Shown here: positions 264-38,455 of the stretch, one piece after another
Position numbering within the stretch: the first letter of the stretch is position 1
Layout: each line of letters opens with the position of its first letter
Source of the DNA: Candidatus Nanoarchaeia archaeon
GTDB taxonomy: Archaea > Nanobdellota > Nanobdellia > Woesearchaeales > SM23-78
Direction: 5' to 3'
Length of the DNA stretch: 47,237 bases
Assembly (NCBI GenBank): GCA_041479965.1
Contig: JBGOZE010000002.1
Location: forward strand, 1-47,237
Notes under the pieces: generated by a model
Seen by the model: only the letters and a program-made list of their open reading frames with translations
Database searches by the model: none
What the model was told of the DNA's origin: nothing
Translations under genes and position numbers: made by a program

Positions 264-264
264 A

Positions 265-381
265 CGCCCCGGCCGGGATTCGAACCCGGGTCGAAGCCTT
301 GCTGTGCATTCAACCATTAATGATGATTAATGATTATAATCCTCGACAGGGCTTCATGATAGGCCACTACACTACCAGGGC
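265..381 (-). tRNA. tRNA-Asp(GTC) with one roughly 44-nt intron at or near the canonical 37/38 position
   Basis: Minus strand reads GCCCTGG-TA-GTGT-AGTGGCCTA-TCAT-G-AAGCC-CTGTCGA-[intron]-GGCTT-CGAC-CCGGG-TTCGAAT-CCCGG-CCGGGGC-G. The acceptor pairs 7/7 with one G:U. The T-loop is TTCGAAT and the anticodon loop is CTGTCGA. Confidence 0.9.
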
Positions 382-795
382 ACTCTGTGCGCGTGCTGAA
401 TGAAGTTGAATAATGATTGTTATTGGATGTTGTTAATAATATAGAGCCGTGGCTCTTTCCTTCTTGCGTATTACCTTTAGAAACTTCCTGCCCCTCCAAA
501 CATTTTTTCCGAAATCCTCTCCGCTAGCCTGGCTATGATATGATAATATCTATATATTACCAGTTAATGCTGGGAATTCTGGAAAAGAGTTCTGAGCCAT
601 TTATAAAGCTTGCGGTTTATTACAGGTTGAGTTTAATACCCCAATGCTTTGCATCGATTGGCAATACACAACCTGTAATCTCAAAAATGCCGGTCGCGAA
701 GCGAACAATTCGCGTCATACTCCGGAGCCTGCTCCGATTGGGTTAGTGAATTGCAGGCATTTTTGTTGATTTTATGCTATTTCTTCTTCCTGGCC

Positions 796-1532: not shown

Positions 1533-2777
1533 TCATTCGTAACGCAAAGCATCCACTGGCTTGAGTTTTGAAGCCCTGTAAGCAGGTATGATTCCTGATA
1601 TCACTCCTATGCCTACTGATACTGATAATGCGATGATTACAGAGTTCAAAGCGACAAAGGTCCCTCCTCTAAGCATTCCTGTCTCACCCATGAGCGCAGG
1701 CAGCGCTCCTGAGAGCAAAGCCCCAAAAAATATTCCTAGGACTCCGCCTACCAGGCCTATTAGCGCTGCATGTAGAAGGAAGATTCTCATGATATCCTTG
1801 TTCCTTGCCCCTATGGCTTTCATTATGCCTATCTCCTTGGTCTTTTCAAGCACAGATGTGAACATGGTATTGGCGATGCCGACAGCTCCGACTATCAAGG
1901 AGACTGCTGCTATGGCCAGGAGGAATGTATTCATTGTCGACATCATCGCTGACCTGGTCTCCTGCATTTGCTTGCTAGAGATGAGCGAGAAATCCTGTGT
2001 CTTATCTGTGACGTGCCTCACCATCATGAGCTTATCCTCGATTTTTGCCATTACTGCATCCAGTTGCTCCTCATCCTTTATCTTTATGATTATAGAATCA
2101 TAAACTCCGTTCTCCGAGTCCTCAAGGACCTGGTAAGCCATCTGTATCGGCATATAGATGCTGTTGCTCTCCTCATCAAGTATGCCCACAACCCTGAACA
2201 CATTGCTTTCTATGGTTATCATCTGGTTGATGCCTATTGGCTTGTCAAAATATGACTCTGCCAATCTTGCGCCTATAACAACAACATTCTGGTCAGCAGC
2301 ATCAAGCATCCTGCCTTCTTTTATCTCAGATGTGGTTATCCTGGACCAAACTGCCTGGTCCACTCCTGTCAATGAGACAGTGCCTGATTTACCAAAGTAT
2401 GACACCTCGACAGTCCCGCTGATGCGCGTATCTATCAATTCAATGTCAGGTATTGATTTCAAAGCCTGGATGTCTGTCCGGTCCAAGACCGGCTCTTCAT
2501 CTGTTGCTGTGGCTCCTGTGCCAAATGCTCCGCCGCCGTCCCTGTCTGAAGGGCCGAACATGCTAGCCCCTCGAGAGTAGCCTACCCTCAGGGTCAGAAG
2601 GTCCCCTCCCAATCCTCCCAGCTGGTCGCTCATCCTTTCCTGCATGCCGCCGCCTATTGACATTATGCCGACAACAGCACCTACACCAATCACGATTCCG
2701 AGTATGGTCAGCCAGCTCCTTAGCTTGCTGTGCATAACCATATCAAATGCATGCTTTAGGCACTTTCGTAACTTCAT
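1533..2777 (-). CDS. ABC transporter permease, MacB/FtsX-like
   Basis: An N-terminal TM (LRSWLTILGIVIGVGAVV) is followed by a large periplasmic-type domain and a C-terminal FtsX-type 3-TM bundle (KEIGIMKAIGARNKDI...). I start at the internal ATG at 2777, which overlaps the upstream TGA as ATGA. The longer track ORF (to 2915) overlaps the upstream gene. Confidence 0.85.
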   Translation of the reverse strand: MKLRKCLKHAFDMVMHSKLRSWLTILGIVIGVGAVVGIMSIGGGMQERMSDQLGGLGGDLLTLRVGYSRGASMFGPSDRDGGGAFGTGATATDEEPVLDRTDIQALKSIPDIELIDTRISGTVEVSYFGKSGTVSLTGVDQAVWSRITTSEIKEGRMLDAADQNVVVIGARLAESYFDKPIGINQMITIESNVFRVVGILDEESNSIYMPIQMAYQVLEDSENGVYDSIIIKIKDEEQLDAVMAKIEDKLMMVRHVTDKTQDFSLISSKQMQETRSAMMSTMNTFLLAIAAVSLIVGAVGIANTMFTSVLEKTKEIGIMKAIGARNKDIMRIFLLHAALIGLVGGVLGIFFGALLSGALPALMGETGMLRGGTFVALNSVIIALSVSVGIGVISGIIPAYRASKLKPVDALRYE

Positions 2778-4183
2778 TTTTTCTTCCCAGCAGGAACATC
2801 CTTTTTCCTGAAGACGTCTTTCATCCGGAAGCTCGGGTCGAGCATCTTCCCTTTCCGGTATTTTCCATATAATGCACCGAGGACTAACACAAGGACGAAC
2901 CCCACAATATACCATTTGTACTTAGAGAAGAAGCTCTCTTGGTTCCTTGTTCTGAAATAGGCTGCTCCTCCTGCCTGAAGGCTTGTGCTGTTGCTTCCTG
3001 TAGACGATTGCTGGTTCATGGCTACTTCTTTCTCCACCATGCTTCTTGTTCCCATGGTATCTGTGTAGGCCACCTGGACCTTCAAGGCATTCGCGTTCTG
3101 CGCCGTAGCATTCCTCCTCAAGGCTGCCCTTGGGTCAGTTTGATTAGATTGGACTTGTGGCATTGTTGGTGCTGATGCCTGCGTTGATTGCAGAGTGAAG
3201 CTTGCGACTGTATAATCTCCTGTGTTGAGGTTGCCGATTATCATTGAATTGGATCCTGTGACACTCCAGCCTTCTTGCTGGGGGATGATCACTGAGACTG
3301 AGAACGCGGGGTTGCTGCCGATGTTCGCTACAGAGAAAGATATCTGGTCGCTTGAGCTCTCAGAGAAAGCAACATCAAAATCAGTTCCTCCACCGACATA
3401 TATGCCTGCTATGGTGGATATTTTTTTGGTAGAGCCATTAAACGAATTCTCATAGGTGAGGTACAGGTTGAGCTTGTAGAGGCCTGGATCTGCGTTAGTA
3501 TCAGCGATGACCTGGTATTCTATCTCAGCGCTTTCACCGACATCGATATAATTGATGTATCTTGTGTTGTCGCTTCCAACAGGCAATATTATATCATCTG
3601 TGTTCTCCCATGAAAAGGTCAGGTCCCTCAAGGGAGCGTTCCCTACGTTGTTGATGCTGAACTTCAGGCTGCTCTGGTGGCCAGGGATCAGGGTGGTCTT
3701 ATCAATATGGATTATTTCTGCGTTCTCCCTGCCTTTGACGTCTATAGCAAGGCTTTTCTCAATCATGTTCCCTAATATCCCGTCATAATACTTGATCTTG
3801 AGGTCGTAACTGCCGGCTATTGCGTCCTTGTCGACTCGTACCTTGTACTTGATTATCTTCATGCTCGAGCTCTCATAATATCCTTGGTATCCTTGGATCG
3901 CTCCTATGTTCTGCACTGCACTATCACCTGATAGGAGAGTGAACGGGTATGCTGGCACCAGCTCTGCTGTAAGGTTATCAACAGCTCCTCCTCCGATGTT
4001 CTGGATCCCGATCCTGATCTCCACCGTGTCTCCTGCAACTGCAGGGTCAGGGTCTTGGTTGACCAAGCTTAGAGATATCGATGCCAGATTATCGAGTTCC
4101 GCATGCACAGCTGACACGCACAATACTAGAACTAATATCATTACTACTCCAAAAATTGTTTTGTTCATTTTCGTTTTTCTCAT
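2774..4183 (-). CDS. secreted, C-terminally anchored protein with repeated CARDB/COG1361-like beta-sandwich domains
   Basis: Signal peptide MNKTIFGVVMILVLVLCVSAVHA. Three N-x-G-x-x-x signature strands (IGIQNIGGGAVDNL, FSINNVGNAPLRDL, FSVANIGSNPAFSV). C-terminal TM plus basic tail. ATGA overlaps with both flanking ABC genes. Confidence 0.7.
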   Translation of the reverse strand: MRKTKMNKTIFGVVMILVLVLCVSAVHAELDNLASISLSLVNQDPDPAVAGDTVEIRIGIQNIGGGAVDNLTAELVPAYPFTLLSGDSAVQNIGAIQGYQGYYESSSMKIIKYKVRVDKDAIAGSYDLKIKYYDGILGNMIEKSLAIDVKGRENAEIIHIDKTTLIPGHQSSLKFSINNVGNAPLRDLTFSWENTDDIILPVGSDNTRYINYIDVGESAEIEYQVIADTNADPGLYKLNLYLTYENSFNGSTKKISTIAGIYVGGGTDFDVAFSESSSDQISFSVANIGSNPAFSVSVIIPQQEGWSVTGSNSMIIGNLNTGDYTVASFTLQSTQASAPTMPQVQSNQTDPRAALRRNATAQNANALKVQVAYTDTMGTRSMVEKEVAMNQQSSTGSNSTSLQAGGAAYFRTRNQESFFSKYKWYIVGFVLVLVLGALYGKYRKGKMLDPSFRMKDVFRKKDVPAGKKK

Positions 4184-9064: not shown

Positions 9065-9162
9065 TGAAGACCTCCATCCCAATAGACATCCTGAAGCCCA
9101 GCTCTCCCCCATTGGATACCAGGAGTTAAGAAAAATAATTAATCAGGACTTGAGTGAAAATA

Positions 9163-9210
9163 AGTAGCCCCCGCCCCCGGAACAGAGCACTTTTGATACT
9201 GTTAGCAGGA
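9163..9210 (-). repeat. copy C of the tRNA-Tyr 3'-end-like element, with extended arm
   Basis: Plus strand reads AGTAGCCCCCGCCCCCGG followed by AACAGAGCACTTTTGATACTGTTAGCAGGA, which is homologous to copy B. It lies immediately 3' of the minus-strand gene ending at 9228. Confidence 0.75.
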
Positions 9211-11946: not shown

Positions 11947-12153
11947 GAAATGAAGAAAGATCGACGGCTTTATAAGCATTTCTTTAATACTTACTTTATA
12001 ATAGTTACTTATAAGATTTATGATTATAATACAAAAATGAAAGGCTTAAAAAGACACCATTAGCCAAATTGAACTTTTCCAACTACAGGTATTTATTCAT
12101 ATCAACTTAAGGACACAGTACTCTTCGGAGTAGTTATATATTAAGAATAGGAA

Positions 12154-12171
12154 AGTAGTCCCCGCCCCCTG
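12154..12171 (-). repeat. copy D of the tRNA-Tyr 3'-end-like element (core only)
   Basis: Plus strand AGTAGTCCCCGCCCCCTG differs from the tRNA copy AGTAGTCCCCGCCCCCGG at 1 nt. It lies about 30 nt 3' of the minus-strand gene ending at 12203. Confidence 0.75.
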
Positions 12172-12682: not shown

Positions 12683-12979
12683 GTGAAAATACACAAAAGC
12701 GATTATGTCAAGTATAGCAGATTCTTAGTTAGAAAGCTCAATAAGAGCGGCTGCTGGGGAGCGGGCTCAATGTATGAAGACAACCTTCTCGATGGTCTGC
12801 CAGATAAATCCATCGGCAGAAAAGTCCTTGACGCCCTTATCAAGCAAAGAATAATTATCGGAAAAAAGAAGAAATACGGGCATAAATATTATTTGAACAC
12901 GGAAAGAATGGACAAGGCAAAAGAAATAGTGAAAGAGCAAGGAAACAGGTCAATCATACTAATACTTCTGATGATATAA
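12683..12979 (+). CDS. small basic protein, function unknown
   Basis: 98 aa ORF with a GTG start about 25 nt downstream of TATA CATATAAATAAG (12651-12662). Divergent from the gene at 12203-12574. Confidence 0.4.
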   Translation: MKIHKSDYVKYSRFLVRKLNKSGCWGAGSMYEDNLLDGLPDKSIGRKVLDALIKQRIIIGKKKKYGHKYYLNTERMDKAKEIVKEQGNRSIILILLMI

Positions 12980-12981
12980 AA

Positions 12982-13000
12982 AGTAGTCCCCACCCCCGAG
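12982..13000 (-). repeat. copy E of the tRNA-Tyr 3'-end-like element
   Basis: Plus strand AGTAGTCCCCACCCCCGAG has 3 mismatches to the tRNA copy. It lies about 150 nt 3' of the giant minus-strand gene. Confidence 0.65.
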
Positions 13001-13150
13001 CTAGAGTGTTTGGCTCAAGTCCGGACAAATAAGGCATTCCATGGCAGAAACACTATGTTTTAAGGCATACTGAGTTTAAAATTATTTCTATTAATCTACT
13101 GCAAAGATGCTCAACCCTCAAATAGGGGGTTAGGATTATACTTATCTAAT

Positions 13151-16100
13151 TTAGTTAGCGTTCGATGTCGCTACGCAAGTAGCTTTTAATGTGCGCCCGC
13201 TGCCTGTGAACTTGACTTTGCAGTCATTCGGGAATATATTACGTTCATTATTCTGCCAATCAGCGGTTACGCATTTTGCCATTCCTAAGGCGTCTCGTGT
13301 GCTCGTAATTTTTATGTTACCACAGTAAGTTGCTGCTGTGCAGGGAGACTCATCAGTCTTGCCATCACAATCATTGTCCTTGTTATCACAGGTCTCTGTT
13401 TTCGCCCCTGCGAATGGATTGCAAGTGTCTCCTCCCCATACTCCTGCTGTGCAGGTCTTAATGCCTTTGTTGCCTGAGCATATTCCTTTTCCGCAAGTTG
13501 TTGCTTTAGTAAGGCTTTCATCAGTTAAGCCGTCACAGTCATTGTCCTTGTTATCACATATCTCGGTTTTTGGTGTTCCTGCAACACAGCTGTTTTTCTC
13601 AACTCCACTTACGCAGGTCTTTTGCCCTGTTTTTGCGCATACTCCCAGCCCGCAGTTGGTTGCTGTTGGGACATAACCTTCATCTGTTTGCCCGTTGCAG
13701 TTATTATCTAGGCCGTCACAATTATTGTCAGTTAGTGCTGGTGTTCCTGCTACGCATGCTGTTTCTTGTCCTGCTACGCATGTTGATGCTGCATTTGATA
13801 ATGCACATACTCCTGGCAGGAAGCAGCTTGTTATTGCTACGTAATCTTCATCTGCTGTTCCGCTGCAATCTTCATCTAATCCATTGCAGTTAGCGTCGTT
13901 TGCTGCTGGTGTTCCAGTCTTACATGCTGTTTCTACTCCTGCTGTGCAGCTTGATGCTACGTTTCCTGCAGCGCAAACTCCTGGTAAGAAGCAGCTTGTT
14001 ACTGGTACATAGCCTTCATCTACCGCATTGTTGCAGTTGTTGTCTATTCCATCGCAATTATTGTCAGTTGCTGCTGGTGTTCCTGCTACGCATGAGTCTA
14101 CGATTCCGCCGCTTACGCATGATGTTGTTCCTGCTGCTGTGCATGCTCCAACTCCACAAGTTGTTGGTAAGCTTACATAATCTTCATCAGCTACTCCGGA
14201 GCAATCATCATCTATACCATCACAAATGGCGTCAGTTGCTCCAGGATGTACTGCTGCGTTTGCGTCATTGCAGTCAGTAGCATCTGCTACATATCCTGTT
14301 GGTGCTATGCAAGCTAGTTGTGTTACAAGAACATTTCCGTAAGTATCACTGTCTAAGTCTTGGTAAAAGGTGTTCTGTACTCCGTTATCTACTGTTCCGT
14401 CACAGTCATCATCAACATTGTTGCATGTTTCTGTGGTTGCTCCAGCGAATGGATCACAAGTGTTATCTCCCCATGTTCCTGCTGTGCATGTTTCGATTCC
14501 AACATTGCTTGAGCAAGCTCCTAGTCCGCAACTGGTTGATCTTGTTAGGCTTTCGTCAATGTTTCCGTCGCAATTGTCATCAAGGTTATTGCAAGTCTCA
14601 GTTGCTCCTGGATGAACATCAGCGTTGTTATCGTCGCAATCGCCAGCTGCGACAGTATAACCATCGCCATCTGCATCAATGGGCTCGCACTTGTATATAT
14701 TCACTGCTAAGCTTCCTGAGTTATCACCATACCATCCTTCAGTTGGGATTCCAGTGTTTGAATCTCCGTCAAACACTCTGAACTTAACAGCTGAACCTGC
14801 TCCAATCATGCTGTTAGCGTAGATGTGACTTGAGTAATATGTTCCCCAATCAACAAATGCATCATTAACCTGCAAGTCAAATGAGCCTTCACCTAGGAAG
14901 TAAGGATCGATGTCGTATCCATCTGTAAATGTTGCCCAGTTGTCATTGCTGATGTATTCTGCATCAGCAGCATTGTTGCTGTTCTGCCAGGTTCCTAATG
15001 CTACAAATAGGTAGGTTTTGCCGTTTTCCAAGGCAGCGCTGCTTGCACCTAAGACGTCATTGGCTGGGACAGTAATTGTCTCAACAAAGGACTTTCCAGT
15101 GCCATCAGGGCATGAGCCATCGCCAGTGCAGCCCTCATCTTCTGTTCCGTCACAATCATCATCTGCAAGGTTGCAGATTTCTATTGGTGTTGTAGGAGTT
15201 AGTGCGTTACACACAGTTCCTAACGTATCTAAAGTGCAGACATACACTCCTGTATTGTAAGCACCGCAGTCATTAGTTCCGCTGTTGCAAGATTCTCCGA
15301 CATTGAATCCGTTGTCGACTAATCCGTCGCAATCATCATCCAAGCCGTTACATGCTTCTGCTGTTTCGGTTCCTCCTATGCAGCTGTCTACTTCAGAGCC
15401 ACCTACGCATGTCATTGAACCTGTGCTTGCGCATACTCCAACACCACATGTAGTTGCATCATTGAGCCAATCCTCATCCCATCCATCATTTGTGGCTGAG
15501 TTGCAGTCATTGTCTATTCCGTCACATAAGTCGAAAATGTTGCCTGTGTTGTCTGATGAGCAATCCGGTAGGCCGCCAGTGCAAGTGAATGTTCCTTCCT
15601 TGCATAAGTCAGTGTCAGCTCCATCACATGCAGTGCCGTGCCATGACGCATCAACTCCATCTGGTGAGTTTACGTCACAATCGTCATCAACATTGTTGCA
15701 CTCTTCTGGTGCGAATGGATGAGTTGTTGGTACTGCGTCATCGCAGTCAGTATTGTCTGCTATGTATCCTGCTGGTGGTGCGCATGCTAGTTGTGAAACC
15801 TCATTATCTCCATAACCATCACTATCTGCATCGGCATAGAAGTTTATCTTGACACCTTCGTCAACACCAGTATCGCAGTCATTATCTAATCCATCACATA
15901 CTTCTGCTGCGTTTGGATGTACAAACTCATTGAAGTCATCACAATCTCCACATGTTGATGCATAGCCATCTCCATCAAGATCATTTCCATCATGGCTTAT
16001 TTCTCCTGCTGAAGTGCAAGTATTAGCATCTTCATCACAAGCTGATGTGAAAGCAGCTCTGAGGTCCCACGTGTAGTCATTATTATCTGGGTCATTGAAA

Positions 16101-19100
16101 CAGTCTGCGATTTCAGGCATATTAAATCCTGTGCAGCTCATTGCAGTCTTCTGAACACATAAACCACCACCGTTGCACTGGTCTTCTGCTGAGCAGAAGT
16201 TACCGTCATCACATGTTGTTGTGGAAGGCGCGAATCCATTTGCTGGGCACAGATCGCTTACTCCGTCACAACTCTCAGCAACATCACAGTCTCCTGCTGA
16301 TGCTCTGCAAACAGTTGTTGAAGGCTCATTATTAGTTAAGCAGCTTCCTGCTCCGTCACAAGCATCTGGTTTTGTGCAGGCAGTGCTAGCTGAGCTCCCA
16401 CAGCTAGTTCCTACTGTTTTGAACCCATTATCTGAACATACTCCTGCTGTGCATTTATCTTGATTTATGCATTCTGAGCCTGCATCACCGCAGTTGTTGC
16501 CATCAGTTGAGCAGACACTCCAACCACCAGCAGAACAAGTTTGAGTTCCAGCGCACACGCCTGAGCCGCAAGCTTGAGTTATGCTTTCATCAACAGAACC
16601 GTTACAATCATTATCCTTATTATCACAAGTTAATTCATCTAGTTCATAATAGGCAACAGATGAATAATCATCAATCCATCCATTTGAACCATCACAATGT
16701 TGAATAGAACCTAAACAAACACCATCCTGCATTGTATTTAATCCTGGAGTCAAACCATTGTCAGCTGAACCATCACAATCATTGTCATTTCCGTCACATA
16801 CTTCTGTTGCTGGCCCTACAGCAGTGCATCCTGTCCAACCACCAAGGTCTGTGCATGTTTCTGTCCCAAAGGCGCATTCTCCAATATCAACACCACACGG
16901 CTGGGATAAGGATTCAGAACCATCCAAGACTCCGTCACAATCATCATCAAAACCATTACAAGATTCTACATTGTTGCCTGTCGTGTCTGAACAAACTTGA
17001 TCACCAATACACTGATATGTTCCTTCCTGACATAAATCAGTATCAACACCATCACAAGCAGCACCAAACCATGCTTCGCTAGCACCGTCAGCAGTTGCAC
17101 CATTACAATCATCATCAAAACCATTACAGATCTCAGATGCACCAGGATGAATTGCAGCATTACCATCATTACAATCACCGTTATTTGCTACGTATCCTGC
17201 TGGCGCAACGCATGCTAGTTGTGTTACAAGAACATTTCCGAAGCCATCTGAGTCTGAGTCTTGGTAGAATGTTGTTTGGACTCCTTCATCAGTTTGTCCG
17301 TCGCAGTTATCATCTAATCCGTTGCAGGTTTCTGCTAAAGGCTCATAATTTGATGAACTGTCAAGCCAGATTTTCTCCCAGGGCTTTGCTGGATTTACAA
17401 GACATTCCTTAACATTATCTGAACATGCTCCTTGTATATTATCAGAAGGAATTGTTCCTAGGCCATCATCTATCTGTCCATTACAGTTATCATCTTTTGC
17501 GTTACATGTTTCTGGTAATGCTTTTCTTCCTGGAACATCAGCAGGAGTAGTAAAAGTCCAATAGCAGTTACAATTTGCAGCACTCAAACTACCGCCATCA
17601 TCAATTTTTCCATTACAATCATCATCTACTCCGTTGCACGTGACGTCATGACCGGCCGGGTTAACATTTACATCATTATCGTTGCAGTCATCATCATTTG
17701 AAACATATCCGGCAGGCTGGCTTACTGAATAAAGAGAATCGCTTGGGTCTCCGTAAGTATCGCCATCTCCATCATGATACCAAAGGGACTCGGTCTGGCA
17801 AGTTGCAGAGCATCCATCTGCAGAATTAGTATTGCCATCGTCGCATTGCTCACCAGATTCGATAAAGCCATTGCCGCATGAAGGTGCATCACAAGCGTCT
17901 CCAATTCCATCTCCATCCAAGTCAGCTTGGTCAGCATTAGAGACTAGCTGGCAATTATCTGCGCCATCTCCTACACCATCGCCATCATCATCAGAATCAC
18001 AAACATCTCCTTGTGCATCTCCATCAGTATCTAATTGATCTGCATTAGGATTCATAGGGCAATTATCCACGGCATTAGCAATTCCATCGCCATCAGTATC
18101 GCCATCGCAATCATCACCAATATTATCACTATCAATATCAGACTGTGTTGGATTGCCTATGAAATGACAATTGTCGTCGCAATTGGTGATCTGCAAGTGA
18201 TCACAGAGGTTGTTACCGATAATTCCGTCGCCATCACCGCTGTCTAAGACTCCGTCATTATCGTCGTCAGGGTCAACGCAGTCAGCTATTCCGTCTGGTT
18301 CATTGTCAGGGAATCCTTCATCAGTCTGTCCATCACAATCATTGTCTACGCCATCACAAACTTCTTCTGTTGGGACACAGCTTGCAGCATGCTGACATCC
18401 TAATGCTATATCACAGGTATCTGTTGTTTGTATATCATTATCATCACAATTCACTTGCGTATAGCTGCAGCTTATCATATTATTATTATCTATTGTACAT
18501 GCATCAGCATCATCACAACTTATTATATTAAACATACATCCTATTCCTGGAACGCATGAATCAGCAGTATTAGCATTGTTATCATTACACACAACATTTG
18601 TGTGTGTACAGACATTATTTACATTTGCATCTGTAGTGCATACATTATTATCATTACAATTTGTATAAACGCATCCTATCGAATTATCACATGTGTCTAT
18701 TGTGTCTGGATTGTTATCAAAACAACCTACTGGCAAACACATGCAAAAAGTTCCCGTCCAAGCACAATTTATACATGCATTAGGTGAAGGACAAGTACTA
18801 GCGGTATGCACGCATCCTGTTAAAGGATTGCAACTGTCTGATGTTCCAGGATTATTGTCGTCGCAGTTTATAGGTGTATTCATGCATCCAAATGGTCCCA
18901 GGTTAGCATCTGTAGTGCATGCATTGCCATCATCACAATTTGTTGGTGTATAGCAGTATATATTGCCTGTTGTCGGATGGTTTTGGCATGTTCCTAATCC
19001 ATTGTTGCACGAGGTATCTATGGCCATAGGAAAATGCTGGCATGTACCGAAGCAGGCATCAGTTGTGCATTCATTCCCGTCAGGACTGCAAGGACCACTA

Positions 19101-19300
19101 ACAGGCAAGTATCCCAAACATGTGTCGCCAATCCATCCGATGCATTCAGATCCACATTCTGCCTTTACAGCTGTTGCCAATAACATCAATCCAAATATAA
19201 AAACTAATATAAGATATGCTTTCTTCATTTTATTTCCCTCCAAACGTTTTAATGAGCGTGATATATTCTTATTATAGATATTACCAGTGTTTGTTTTCAT
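13151..19300 (-). CDS. giant secreted cysteine-rich repeat protein (about 2,025-2,049 aa), adhesin-like
   Basis: One uninterrupted ORF.
- Signal peptide [23 protein letters not shown] if translation starts at ATG 19228. Both ATG 19300 and ATG 19228 have a GGAGG about 8 nt upstream.
- N-terminal CxDxNxCTxDxC repeats.
- TSP3-like Ca-binding repeats ([35 protein letters not shown]).
- One [27 protein letters not shown] myxococcal-type repeat.
- More than 20 MopE-like motifs (DCNDxxxxxxPGAxExCNGxDDDCDG).
- One Cys-free domain of about 140 aa. Confidence 0.9.
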
Positions 19301-19605
19301 TTTTACTTTCCTCCGTTTGCTAAATAGAACTCTTTTTGTTTGTGGGTAGAACTCTTAGAAATTATAGTCGTACGAATATTATGCATATTCGGTTGCATTA
19401 ATTACCCCCAGATGACACGCCTTTCACTATATTATAGGCGCGCGGAAGATTAGGAATTACCATACATATTTAAACTTAATCTTTTTTATCCTCTGATGAA
19501 TAGTTAATTTTTTGGGTCGCATTGAAAGATATTTTGGTGAGTTTCCTCACAGCATAGGCAAATTTAAAAAAGCGGTGTTTTGTCGTCGATAAATTAGAAA
19601 AGTAG

Positions 19606-19822
19606 TCCCCGCCCCCGGACTCGAATTTCCCAAGCTTGCGAATGCTTTCTTAGTTCGGAGGACTTAACGAAGTTAATGTCCTCCTTAAGTTTTTCCCTTA
19701 AGGCTTTCGCAAAGGCTTACCAGGAACCTCTCGGGCACTGCTGACCGCATTTCATTCATACTCTTGCGAGTTTGTCTTGCGGCATCTACAGCCAAGTGCT
19801 CAAACCGTTAAGCTAGGCGGGG
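19606..19822 (-). tRNA. tRNA-Tyr(GTA) with two introns (about 50 nt after the anticodon loop; about 94 nt between T-stem and T-loop, position 53/54)
   Basis: Minus strand reads CCCCGCC-TA-GCTT-AACGGTTT-GAGC-A-CTTGG-CTGTAGA-[50 nt]-CCGAG-AGGTT-CCTGG-[94 nt]-TTCGAGT-CCGGG-GGCGGGG-A. The spliced product is exactly 73 nt with all stems paired. The C1:G72 pair is the archaeal/eukaryal Tyr identity pair. TATA (complement of 19847-19857) lies about 30 nt upstream. Confidence 0.85.
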
Positions 19823-20794: not shown

Positions 20795-21355
20795 CTATCC
20801 GTTCAGCACGACCTTGATATTGTCCAGCTCTCTTGGGTTCCTATTCTTAAGTATGAGGAGCACAGAGACTTTCTGCCTCGGGTCTATGGCGTTGTCAATT
20901 GATATTACTGGCGTAACAGTAGGGATGTATTCTCCAGGCCCAAGGTCAGGTGAGACCACGTAGATGGCGAATTTCTCCCTTTCTTCATAGTAGAAGCCTG
21001 TCTTCTCAGACTTAATCTTGACAGGTATGAAGTAGGTCTTCATCTCATCCACTGTGAGCTTGGGGTTGAATTCGAGAAGGAATTTCATTTCTCCATGGGC
21101 ATTGATGTAGCTTGATTGTGGGTCTATGTTGAGGACCCAGTTCACGTCTCTAGTGCTTATGGTGAAGTAATCATCATAGTCTGCTGTGTTGCTGATTATG
21201 AGCTCGAAATAGGCTGTCTCTTCCTTGGTGATGGTGTTATTGAGGACATTCACAGAATAGGCAAACGCTGACACTTGCGCAGCTGTAGAAATAATGATTA
21301 TCAATGCAGTCAAAAGTAAGATAGATAACCTGTATGCGGCTTTATTACCCACCAT
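20795..21355 (-). CDS. N-terminal half (signal peptide plus beta-sandwich domains) of the same surface protein, ended by an in-frame TAG
   Basis: Signal peptide MVGNKAAYRLSILLLTALIIIISTAAQVSA, then FELIISNTADYDDYF and LILKNRNPRELDNIKVVLNG strands. The ORF stops in the middle of a domain. Confidence 0.55.
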   Translation of the reverse strand: MVGNKAAYRLSILLLTALIIIISTAAQVSAFAYSVNVLNNTITKEETAYFELIISNTADYDDYFTISTRDVNWVLNIDPQSSYINAHGEMKFLLEFNPKLTVDEMKTYFIPVKIKSEKTGFYYEEREKFAIYVVSPDLGPGEYIPTVTPVISIDNAIDPRQKVSVLLILKNRNPRELDNIKVVLNG

Positions 21356-33237: not shown

Positions 33238-33378
33238 AATGACAGAAAATGCTTGCTTTCTTATCAATGTTTCGCAAGGCAAGCAAGGCAAAGTACACGA
33301 TTAGGGTTTGCAATTTAATAAAATTTATAAATGCGCTCGAAAAGAAAATGCAGATACAATTTTTATGAGGTGGTTCAT

Positions 33379-34533
33379 TTGGCTAAATCTTTTTTCACAA
33401 GCGAAAGCGTCACTGAAGGTCATCCTGACAAGATATGCGACCAGATAAGCGATTCTATACTTGACGACCTATTACGCCAAGATCCTTATTCCAGGGTTGC
33501 TATTGAATCCTTGACCACAACAGGCTCTGTTCACGTGGCAGGAGAGGTCACCACCAAAGGCTTTGCTGATGTCCAGCAGATAGTCAGGCAGACACTCAAG
33601 GATATAGGTTACACTGACCCGAGGTTCGGAATAGATTTTGAAGATGCTGGCGTCTGGGTGTCTATCCACGCCCAAAGCCCGGACATATCTCAGGGAGTGA
33701 GCGAGGGCAAGAATAAGGAGCAGGGAGCAGGAGACCAGGGCATGATGTTCGGCTTTGCCTGCAACGAAACAAAAGAATTGATGCCTTTGCCGATAATGCT
33801 TGCCCATAGGCTGGCCATGAAGCTCGCAGAGGTAAGAAAGAAAGGAATTGTCAAAGGGCTTGGTCCTGACGGCAAGAGCCAGGTAACTGTTGAGTACGAT
33901 GATGGCAAGCCTAAGAGGGTTGATGCTGTGGTGATAGCGCAGCAGCACATCGATGATGTCTCTGAGGACATATTGAGGAAAGATATCCTGGAGAAAGTGA
34001 TCAAGCCTGTGTGCGGCAAGTACCTTGATGCTAAGACCAAGATTTTCATCAACGCCACTGGCAGGTTCGTGATTGGCGGGCCAGAGGGAGACACAGGAGT
34101 CACTGGAAGAAAAATAATAGTCGACACTTATGGTGGAATGGGAAGGCACGGGGGAGGAGCATTCTCAGGCAAAGACCCTAGCAAGGTTGACAGGTCTGCT
34201 ACCTATGCCTGCAGGTACATCGCCAAGAACATCGTGGCTGCTGGCCTCGCTGACAGGTGCGAAGTCCAACTATCATACGCGATTGGAGTCGCAGATCCCA
34301 TGGGCGTGTTTGTTGACACGTTTGGCACTGGCAAGGTTGCTGATGACAAGATTGTCGAGCTCATCAAGAAGCATTTCCCGCTCAAGCCTGCTGAGATAAT
34401 CAAGCACCTGAATCTGAGAAGGCCCATCTACAGGAAGACTGCTGCCTACGGCCACTTCGGCAGGGAAGACCCTGATTTCACATGGGAGAAGACTGATAAG
34501 GCTGAACTGTTAAAAAAGGAAGTAAAGAAATAA
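33379..34533 (+). CDS. metK: S-adenosylmethionine synthetase, bacterial/eukaryal MetK type
   Basis: [29 protein letters not shown] and [17 protein letters not shown] favour the TTG start at 33379, which is preceded by GAGGTG at 6 nt. The track's ATG 33331 abuts the TATA box. Confidence 0.95.
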
Positions 34534-37414: not shown

Positions 37415-38455
37415 TTATGCAACCCAAGGGCCCAGCCTGTCTTTCAGCTCATCTATCATGGAGATGTCTGTCGGGTTGGTCTTAAGCCTCAAGGCCAGAT
37501 AGTAGCTGGTGAGGTCTCCAAGGATGATGGCTGAGAACATCTTGCTGAGCAGCGAAGTCCCGTGTATGGCTATCTCTGTTGCGCTCACTCCTTTGCGCAG
37601 CATGATATCCTTGGTCAGCACCATTCTTCTCTGCACTCTCCTGTGGTCCTCATCAAACCTTAGGATGATGGCGTGATAGTTGCCTCGGACATTCTCGAAG
37701 CCCTGGAACTCATTGTGGTTAAGCTCAGAGAATACGTGGTTGAAAGCTTGGGTCTTGGAGTTCTCATTGAACTGGCACTTCCACCTGTAGCCTATGGCTC
37801 CGAATCTTGGTCCAGCATATATCAGTGGTGTCCTGTGGACTAGTTTTTCAGATAGTATCATGGCGTTCTTCTCCAATCCCGGGAGCTGGGCTTTGAGCTC
37901 TTCTTTGAGCTTGATGACGTCCTTGGCTTTGCTCTCAATCAATCTCAGCTTTTCAAGAATCCTTAGGATTGCGAAGAACAGATAGGCCAATGCAGCCCTG
38001 GGCTGATAGCCAGTGGGAATATTAACAATTATAAGCTTCGAAACTCGGGCATATTCCTCAATCTTTCCGCCAGTTGTGACCACGATGACGTCGCAGCCCT
38101 TCCTCCTTGCTTCCTTGTACATGCTCAAGGTCTCTTCTGTGTTGCCTGAGTAGGAGCAAGCTATGATAAGGGTTTGCTTGTCAACCCATAGTGGAAGCGA
38201 GTAGTCCTGGACAACTTCCAAGCGAATGGGCTGGTCTGCGAGAAATCCTTTTAGCAATAGGCCTGCTATGGCTGAGCCTCCCATGCCTGCCATTAGAACG
38301 CTAGAATATTTTCCTCCTGCTTTGCTGAAATCCAGGGTTTCTGCTAGTTTGTAGCCTTGCTCTGCCTGCTCAGGAGTTTGCAGGATAGCCTGCCTCATGT
38401 TCTCTGTATCGTATTTGTAGTAATCATCAGGCAGCTTAAGCTCTTGCTCAGTCAT
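37415..38455 (-). CDS. bifunctional phosphoglucose/phosphomannose isomerase (SIS family)
   Basis: SIS motifs GMGGSAIAG and CSYSGNTEET. Length and layout are typical of archaeal PGI/PMI. Confidence 0.8.
   Translation of the reverse strand: MTEQELKLPDDYYKYDTENMRQAILQTPEQAEQGYKLAETLDFSKAGGKYSSVLMAGMGGSAIAGLLLKGFLADQPIRLEVVQDYSLPLWVDKQTLIIACSYSGNTEETLSMYKEARRKGCDVIVVTTGGKIEEYARVSKLIIVNIPTGYQPRAALAYLFFAILRILEKLRLIESKAKDVIKLKEELKAQLPGLEKNAMILSEKLVHRTPLIYAGPRFGAIGYRWKCQFNENSKTQAFNHVFSELNHNEFQGFENVRGNYHAIILRFDEDHRRVQRRMVLTKDIMLRKGVSATEIAIHGTSLLSKMFSAIILGDLTSYYLALRLKTNPTDISMIDELKDRLGPWVA

Follow-up and report, generated by a model that had tools for sequence, protein, structure and literature searches.

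A single open reading frame (ORF) on the minus strand of a 47,237-nucleotide (nt) stretch of Candidatus Nanoarchaeia DNA (contig JBGOZE010000002.1 of assembly GCA_041479965.1, order Woesearchaeales; hereafter the window) encodes a giant protein of 2049 residues, predicted to be exported, for which adhesion to a host cell or to a matrix is, in our analysis, the most likely role, with a probability of about 0.55. The ORF (13151–19300) is a real gene, and it is a mosaic assembled from a pool of modules that is shared among DPANN archaea. The families of its repeats have been described before, and episymbionts can be expected to have large adhesin-like proteins, such as the SPEARE proteins of nanohaloarchaea; the giant protein itself is a new architectural variant. 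New as well are the verification of the gene, an unannotated beta-sandwich family in its central part, a conserved block at its C-terminus, a tRNA-Tyr gene with two introns and repeats of its 3' end beside it, the mosaicism of the modules, and an archaeon-specific purge of N-glycosylation sequons.

The giant ORF is intact in separate assemblies

The ORF is uninterrupted from M1 to its stop codon, as the first-pass annotation of the window, made without database searches, had described it (a single ORF of 6.1 kb). An identical protein is encoded on a 49-kb contig of a metagenome-assembled genome at NCBI (GCA_041490125.1) and on an 18.5-kb JGI metagenome contig (3300052988), each of which matches the window at 99.98% identity, without a single nucleotide difference within the ORF. 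A literature search for the assembly accessions gave no result. In addition, two sediment metagenomes from separate studies (X1 and X2) yield Logan contigs that tile the ORF with 0 mismatches, at a flat depth (7.8–13x in X1) that equals the depth of the flanks.

The protein sequence is highly repetitive, breaks of the Logan contigs fall inside the ORF, and numerous short joints are found in the metagenomes, all of which would be expected if the ORF were an assembly artefact, that is, a chimeric or collapsed fusion of shorter repeat genes. However, the repeats are diverged in DNA: most copies are 60–80% identical, the best reach 85–90% over 30–65 nt, and Tandem Repeats Finder (TRF) reports one array only, 2.2 copies of a 168-nt unit at 72%. 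The contig junctions inside the ORF lie at different positions in X1 and X2, where the contigs agree perfectly in their overlaps, without a rival path at ≥95% identity, and other repeat genes of the metagenomes account for the numerous short joints. Together with the recurrence of the same ORF in two separately named assemblies and the flat depth, these observations largely refute the artefact, to which we leave hardly any probability.

The gene content of the window is archaeal, and includes a TFIIB/TFB gene, a Rad50-like ATPase gene and intron-bearing tRNA genes. The TFB protein shares 84–90% identity with proteins named Candidatus Woesearchaeota, Nanoarchaeota or Nanoarchaeia, which confirms, at the level of sequence identity, the DPANN lineage of the window and agrees with the small-archaeon source proposed in the first-pass annotation.

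A predicted signal peptide precedes an acidic, cysteine-rich scaffold

The ORF has two candidate starts, M1 and M25 (nt 19228), and GGAGG precedes both ATGs. Translation from M25 yields a textbook Sec-type signal peptide (residues 25–47; 19160–19228) and a mature N-terminus beginning ECGSEC. This peptide is the sole hydrophobic segment of the protein: hydropathy by the KD19 measure exceeds 1.6 only at residues 24–32 and reaches a maximum of 1.42 elsewhere, and the scan finds no further segment of transmembrane grade, in line with the secreted status and the absence of a C-terminal transmembrane segment that had been suggested for the protein. All 184 cysteines (9.0% of the residues, and an even number) lie after the signal peptide. 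Aspartate (13.9%), glycine (11.5%) and asparagine (9.3%) are the other characteristic residues, and acidic side chains (358 Asp and Glu) far outnumber basic ones (52 Lys and Arg), giving a net charge of about −300, with 18 His and 15 Met in the 2049 residues.

Four types of repeat make up most of the mature protein, and all four, which had been recognized in the first-pass annotation, are found by Pfam above its curated cut-offs at the places expected; all lie on the minus strand. The N-terminal array (residues 48–312; 18365–19159) comprises about eight Cys-rich units of 23–24 residues with the pattern CxDxNxCTxDxC. These belong to the Dicty_CTDC family (PF00526), which scores 28.6 bits (1.3e-6) in the whole protein and 65.8 bits, over seven repeats, when the 265 residues of the array are scanned alone. 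PF00526 is present in 112 of the 112 homologues of this array.

The array is followed by the first MopE core and a thrombospondin type-3 (TSP-3) calcium 'wire' (residues 315–471; 17888–18358). The TSP_3 match (PF02412; 52.5 bits against a cut-off of 25, 3.9e-14) covers 17888–18181, from which the acidic repeats extend to about 18358. Residues 374–491 align with the wires of thrombospondin-2 (1yo8 and 2rhp, E ~1e-38), of COMP (3fby, 3e-36) and of thrombospondin-1 (1ux6), with the acidic loops and the cysteines in register. Over the ~100 aligned residues (E 1e-38) the spacing DxDxDGxxDxxDNC...Q.D.D.DG.GD.CD and the cysteines are kept. TSP-3 repeats are wrapped around Ca2+ ions and pinned by disulfides, and an extended structure of this kind would be expected in the giant protein. 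Unlike thrombospondins and COMP, however, the archaeal protein has only some 3–4 such repeats and lacks the C-terminal lectin-like domain, the EGF domains and the coiled-coil. A single DUF4215 repeat of the myxococcal Cys-rich type (PF13948; residues 469–502; 17795–17896) comes next and passes its cut-off marginally (29.5 bits against 27, 9e-7).

The remainder of the scaffold is built from MopE-type units. Cu-binding_MopE (PF11617) matches the whole protein with 223.5 bits against a cut-off of 27 (2e-67) in 14 stretches, and a regular expression finds 21 cores, in agreement with the earlier estimate of more than 20. Besides the core that adjoins the TSP-3 wire, the cores are arranged in three blocks: seven in block 1 (residues 503–905; 16586–17794), five in block 2 (residues 1106–1391; 15128–15985) and eight in block 3 (residues 1541–1985; 13346–14680), the last of which includes the 168-nt (56-residue) tandem units detected by TRF. 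Each motif, CxGxDxDCDGxxDE, heads a unit of 54–67 residues with six cysteines. The residues conserved across these units are Asp, Asn and Cys, as is typical of Ca2+-binding loops and disulfides, and DxDxDG loops occur 18 times in the protein, compared with 0.64 in shuffled sequences (shuffle maximum 4). The Pfam check that had been proposed for TSP_3, Cu-binding_MopE and DUF4215 thus returns all three families, and the nucleotide ranges first given for the TSP-3 and DUF4215 repeats are correct.

Scans with Pfam and NCBIfam find no enzymatic domain in the giant protein, and detect no dockerin, protease, nuclease or glycoside-hydrolase domain. The NCBIfam match to Omp28_seleno (29 bits against a cut-off of 200) reflects the TSP-3-like repeats only and was rejected.

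Three further modules interrupt or end the scaffold

Three modules were overlooked in the first-pass annotation, two within the scaffold and one at the C-terminus. The first, a disintegrin-like stretch, lies in a Cys-rich region between MopE blocks 1 and 2 (residues 906–1105; 15986–16585, minus strand). It has no sequence match in the PDB and a Pfam match below threshold, and shares 44% identity over 63 residues with the Disintegrin domain, itself above threshold, of the archaeal protein P0248 described below.

The central module (residues 1392–1540; 14681–15127, minus strand), which carries the motifs ADAEY...FDGD...WYGDNSG, lies between blocks 2 and 3 and contains zero cysteines. A word-indexed search returns 15 homologues at 44–60% identity, most of them proteins of 200–260 residues without a Pfam domain, and several of which start with an N-terminus resembling a signal peptide. 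An exhaustive profile search extends the family, for which there is no Pfam model, to 1,460 cluster representatives at E ≤ 1e-3, of which 164 reach E ≤ 1e-30. The family (including P0001–P0015 and P0248–P0390) spans bacteria of the candidate phyla radiation (CPR), actinomycetes and archaea; within the species-representative genome set all relatives are bacterial (CPR phyla and Actinomycetes). The module is found singly, in up to eight tandem copies, or within proteins of up to 4,824 residues, and its partner domains in other extracellular proteins include SdrD_B, SpaA, DUF11, DUF642, CBM96, dockerin, MopE and Laminin_G.

AlphaFold models the central module as a beta-sandwich with a predicted TM-score (pTM) of 0.73 and a mean pLDDT confidence of 74.6. 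It has no sequence match in the PDB. The best fold matches found by Foldseek are PllA (5ofz) and EclA (6ygq) of the PA-IL/LecA family, small Ca2+-dependent sugar-binding beta-sandwiches, whereas a viral fold library gives weak and generic jelly-roll matches only. With no sequence similarity to these lectins and TM-scores of 0.38–0.51, the model shows resemblance and not membership, and we use 'lectin-like' for the central module as a lead rather than as a demonstrated family assignment.

The protein ends in a tail of about 64 residues (13154–13345, minus strand) that terminates in CVATSNAN and has no Pfam match. Together with the two preceding MopE units this tail forms a block of 147 residues that is 69% identical to the C-terminus of an archaeal surface protein of 980 residues, which otherwise differs from the giant protein and ends in CVATTNAN. 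Conservation of the block in a second archaeal surface protein means that the earlier statement that no C-terminal sorting motif is apparent needs revision; judged from its sequence, the module is a candidate sorting or tethering element.

Sequons for N-glycosylation are purged

The oligosaccharyltransferase AglB glycosylates exported proteins of archaea at N-X-S/T sequons, and DPANN archaea possess AglB (PMC6098224; PMC8993221). In the mature giant protein a single N-X-S/T sequon is observed, against 28.3 ± 4.6 expected and a minimum of 15 in 2,000 shuffles. The mirror motif S/T-X-N occurs 26 times, and the avoidance at position N+2 is limited to Ser and Thr.

The same purge is seen in other archaeal proteins of this kind, in a comparison in which three archaeal genomes are represented. 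P0248 has 0 sequons where 48.6 are expected, three proteins of the related locus L028 have 3 against 20.9 (1,543 residues), 0 against 16.3 (980 residues) and 1 against 8.7 (688 residues, P0249), and a Cys-rich neighbour of P0248 with 616 residues (locus L024) has 0 against 5.7. P0249 served as a test of the prediction that a purged protein is archaeal, which held. By comparison, the MopE proteins of a bacterial-type locus with pilin-like, SpaA and VWA genes (L001) contain 8 and 11 sequons against 6.8 and 10.6 expected, and the family members P0260 (22 against 17) and P0250 (8 against 7.5) are not depleted. The pooled ratio of observed to expected sequons is 1.00 in 155 other members of the central-module family and 0.03 in three archaeal MopE giants. 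A set of TFB proteins was dropped as a control, as it represents one orthologue group only.

The simplest reading of this pattern is selection to keep these proteins unglycosylated. Such selection would imply that archaeal cells export the proteins and have long been the setting of their evolution, and hence a long residence of the giant gene under archaeal constraints. We found no description of sequon depletion in archaea in the literature searched.

The gene is a mosaic of modules shared among archaea

Searches with sub-regions of the giant protein found no full-length orthologue. The N-terminal array matches only Dicty_CTDC proteins, the named ones of which come from Acidobacteria, Myxococcota and a dictyostelid. 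The closest relatives of individual segments are archaeal surface proteins. P0248, with 4,824 residues, is encoded on a 529-kb archaeal contig (locus L024) between ribosomal-protein genes, and combines ten MopE matches, a Disintegrin domain, two copies of the central module, CBM96, LTD and dockerin domains. A related contig, L028, has the same modules at the syntenic site, but divided among three genes, for proteins of 1,543, 980 and 688 residues. Beside the genes for L15e, L31e and S19e, the two sites (L024 8001–25567 and L028 61–10889) also differ in that the L028 set adds an M10 peptidase and a Bro-N protein. The difference between the two loci suggests that surface-protein genes are rapidly split, fused or shuffled.

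Overall, the giant protein and P0248 are 28–32% identical. Against this low background, the segment encoding residues 554–614 is 88% identical to P0248 in nucleotides and includes a run of 37 identical residues, the central module is 80% identical to P0248 in nucleotides, and the C-terminal block is 77% identical to the 3' end of the 980-residue gene. Segments of such high identity amid low overall identity indicate that the giant gene was put together as a mosaic from a stock of modules that these archaea hold in common. P0248 and the L028 set have MopE units, the disintegrin stretch, the central beta-sandwich, DUF4215, the C-terminal block, the sequon purge and a low GC content at third codon positions (GC3) in common with the giant gene, but differ from it in the order and number of modules, in the additional CBM96, LTD, dockerin, Laminin_G, Glug and Flg_new domains, and in their location beside ribosomal-protein genes. 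As to the inter-domain transfer of modules raised in the first-pass annotation, the evidence is mixed: the module families are mostly bacterial, which is in its favour, whereas the closest relatives of individual segments are archaeal (77–88% nucleotide identity) and the sequon purge points the same way.

A two-intron tRNA-Tyr marks a variable region

The giant ORF had been placed next to an intact tRNA-Tyr gene in a cassette-like position. This tRNA-Tyr(GTA) gene (19606–19822, minus strand) consists of three exons (19822–19785, 19734–19720 and 19625–19606) separated by introns of 50 nt, after position 37/38, and 94 nt, at position 53/54. The second intron was revealed by the related locus L026, and the element is conserved, also in its position, in L025, L026 and L027. 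Once both introns are removed, ARAGORN recognizes a canonical 74-nt tRNA-Tyr(GTA) in the window as well as in L026. In the unspliced region (19.6–19.8 kb) no tRNA is called by ARAGORN in default, intron or low-threshold modes, or by Rfam at the gathering score or at E ≤ 10, and none of 864 single-intron splices made in silico around the gene gives an ARAGORN call; the two tRNAs that both programs report in the window are distant from the giant ORF. ARAGORN and Rfam miss the gene because it has two introns, and the tRNA counts of such genomes are therefore probably too low.

The 20-nt core at the 3' end of the tRNA-Tyr gene, CGGGGGYGGGGACTACTT, is present in four direct copies on the minus strand (9160–9179, 12151–12170, 12979–12998 and 19598–19617), where 0 are expected by chance, and each copy sits shortly downstream of a minus-strand gene. 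The copy at 12979–12998 belongs to a degenerate duplicate of most of the tRNA-Tyr gene, with 5' and 3' blocks (12970–13145, minus strand), which bounds the segment of the giant gene; the copy at 12151–12170 has two mismatches, and that at 9160–9179 is the outermost. The four copies delimit three segments, in which all genes are unannotated and have a low GC3, and the giant ORF is the sole gene between the intact tRNA gene and this degenerate duplicate. At locus L026 the flanking protein is 65% identical and synteny upstream is kept, whereas downstream of tRNA-Tyr no gene is related to any in the window, and the syntenic site has no giant gene. The content of the region thus varies between relatives. 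The core copies and the tRNA sequence spliced in silico support the cassette-like position beside an intact tRNA-Tyr that had been described.

An intact tRNA gene with direct repeats of its 3' end bounding the adjacent DNA is the classical footprint of insertion by a tRNA-targeted element, but several points weaken this reading here. Neither Pfam nor PHROGs finds an integrase or other mobility gene among the ORFs of 8.7–13 kb, and the copies at 12151 and 9160 have no more than about 20 nt in common. GC3 is 0.26–0.47 for the genes at 7.9–19.3 kb (0.30 for the giant gene) compared with 0.48–0.66 elsewhere in the window; however, the giant and surface genes of two other archaeal loci show the same GC3 deficit relative to the ribosomal-protein genes beside them. 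Since the same bias recurs in these genes, composition alone is no proof of recent import, and low GC3 was rejected as such. We note that ARAGORN calls no tRNA in the L024 and L028 loci, where it would miss a multi-intron tRNA too.

A 690-nt Logan contig of X1 (5.5x) is ~95% identical to the flank at 12863–12976, skips from 12976 directly to position 19595, in the tRNA core (19595–19618), and then diverges. It may come either from a co-occurring strain with other content beside the repeat or from one without the cassette. As proof of a strain that lacks the gene the joint was rejected, because two copies of the tRNA core account for it and the match on its distal side is only 24 nt long.

Adhesion compared with other roles

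The case for an adhesin draws on the properties of TSP-3 repeats, on the DPANN lineage of an archaeon that is probably host-dependent, on the variability and mosaicism of the gene, and on precedents for attachment by TSP-3 and dockerin proteins. Giant proteins with these domains are linked to attachment in predatory bacteria, and those of Omnitrophota are likewise large, extracellular, Ca2+-binding and rich in repeats in cell-dependent organisms (bioRxiv 10.1101/2023.11.21.568195). The archaeal protein differs from the Omnitrophota giants in that it is far smaller than the bacterial proteins of >10,000 residues, much richer in cysteine and without a detected dockerin. We infer a mechanism in which a Woesearchaeota-type DPANN archaeon would export the protein through the Sec pathway as an elongated, strongly acidic scaffold of 21 MopE-type six-Cys units and a TSP-3 wire, stabilized in vivo by ~92 disulfides and many bound Ca2+ ions. 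This scaffold may present three candidate binding modules, the Dicty_CTDC array, the disintegrin-like module and the lectin-like beta-sandwich, whereas the conserved C-terminal module would be a likely tether or sorting element. Kept free of N-glycans by the purge of its sequons, the protein would act as a Ca2+-dependent adhesin whose putative ligands, glycans or proteins, would belong to a host cell or a matrix. Its gene, a mosaic, occupies the segment nearest to tRNA-Tyr in a variable region that lies downstream of this tRNA gene and is bounded by repeats.

Several observations weigh against this picture. The Disintegrin matches (PF00200) score 21.4 and 25.3 bits, below the Pfam cut-off of 35.1. 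The fold match of the central module to PllA and EclA is borderline (E 1e-3; query TM-score (TMq) 0.38–0.40, target TM-score (TMt) 0.47–0.51), and its model contains one disordered loop of low confidence. AlphaFold, which the first-pass annotation had suggested for individual modules, gives a usable model of the central module; a model of a single MopE unit, made from 12 internal units, is poor (pLDDT 50, pTM 0.24), and as its structure is not modellable the rod-like shape of the scaffold is an assumption. No membrane anchor has been identified in the protein, and no RNA runs holding the sequence of the gene were found. AglB is not encoded in the window. A probable surface protein of the CARDB/NPCBM_assoc type (2774–4183, minus strand), beside a MacB/FtsX ABC transporter, has 6 sequons against 4.6 expected; because this protein is not depleted, the purge is gene-specific within the genome and its cause is inferred.

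Among the alternatives, a structural component of the envelope or matrix, or a buffer of divalent cations, without a defined ligand, is the one to be taken most seriously, although we consider it considerably less probable than adhesion. The charge of the protein, its dozens of acidic loops, the dominance of repeats, the lack of a recognizable enzymatic domain and the missing anchor would all suit such a role, but three distinct non-scaffold modules (the lectin-like sandwich, the disintegrin-like stretch and the CTDC array) are of kinds that serve in binding elsewhere, and a mosaic gene that varies between strains and lineages, and that is missing from the syntenic site in L026, fits an interaction protein better than a core envelope component. 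Less probable again is that the gene is cargo of a mobile or virus-derived element at tRNA-Tyr, for example a receptor-binding or superinfection-related surface protein. The layout of an intact tRNA followed by three direct 3'-end copies, with the giant gene alone in the proximal segment, would be explained in this way, as would the low GC3 of the region, the wholly different content downstream of the tRNA in L026, and weak fold matches to phage tail proteins. Yet no virus or plasmid gene, be it for an integrase, a capsid, replication or another function, is recognizable in the region, genes of this class are GC3-poor also in archaeal loci with no detected tRNA association, and the two distal copies of the core are short.

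A protein for acquisition of copper or another metal, like MopE of Methylococcus, with the repeats as metal sites for uptake, is suggested by the name and score of PF11617 and by a weak match of residues 1106–1151 to the MopE crystal structure (2vov, E 4.6e-4), but is very unlikely. The surface-associated copper proteins MopE and CorA of methanotrophs share the CxGxDxDCDGxxDE motif with the giant protein, where it is found 21 times at the head of a repeated unit, and MopE is secreted and stabilized by Ca2+ (PMC3423442). The Cu(I) site of MopE*, however, is formed by His132, His203 and kynurenine-130 (the oxidized Trp130), and the N-terminal part of the chain is invisible in the crystal (PMC3423442). 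The match is confined to chain residues 5–49, in this invisible part and away from the Cu(I) site, and the giant protein has no similarity to the Cu-binding domain. Histidine and methionine are scarce, and the conserved Asp, Asn and Cys of the units are those of Ca2+ loops and disulfides. As judged from the sequence, copper binding is not supported, and neither is the 'metal-binding' label of the first-pass annotation in the MopE sense. Adhesion remains the reading that we favour.

Other features of the window and related loci

The genes neighbouring the giant ORF have no Pfam or PHROG annotation. At position 20797, within the stop codon of a minus-strand ORF (20795–21355), the JGI contig (L004) reads C where the window has A, which removes the stop and fuses ORFs of 186 and 285 residues into a gene of 484 residues; the distant relative L026 has a single gene of 487 residues. 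As both L004 and L026 have one gene, the window seems to carry a recent nonsense variant that splits it. An intron-containing tRNA lies at 264–382 (minus strand; Rfam 45.4 bits) and is called tRNA-Ala(AGC) with a 44-nt intron by ARAGORN in intron mode, whereas its anticodon loop, read by eye, could instead be GTC (Asp). Two genes are possible inter-domain acquisitions: an S-adenosylmethionine synthetase of bacterial/eukaryotic type with MetK domains (33331–34533, plus strand), and a gene with the C-terminal SIS domain of 'bacterial' phosphoglucose isomerase (37415–38455, minus strand). On the archaeal contig of L024, a gene of 462 residues (1705–3093) with bacterial Sigma70 regions 2, 3 and 4 is located between those for Spt5 and ribosomal protein L11.

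Implications

A two-intron tRNA that is invisible to standard tools marks a variable region here, which bears on the annotation of tRNA sets and of genomic islands in DPANN archaea. The beta-sandwich family, with its ~1,460 cluster representatives, is common to DPANN archaea, CPR bacteria and actinomycetes, and the conserved C-terminal module may be a signal for sorting or tethering. If it proves general, near-total loss of sequons could flag interaction proteins across archaeal metagenomes. A broader and decidedly tentative proposal is that DPANN archaea keep a horizontally exchanged pool of Ca2+- and disulfide-stabilized adhesin modules, which would be recombined into lineage-specific giants at variable, sometimes tRNA-linked sites under strong selection against sequons. 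A 'naked' protein on a glycosylated cell might then be a requirement of host recognition, sequon depletion a signature of interaction proteins in uncultured archaea, and the WYGDNSG sandwich a new and widespread glycan-binding family.

Host recognition and attachment by DPANN archaea, most of which are uncultured, are largely unknown. The locus gives concrete starting points for their study, with a verified candidate attachment protein whose defined modules can each be expressed separately.

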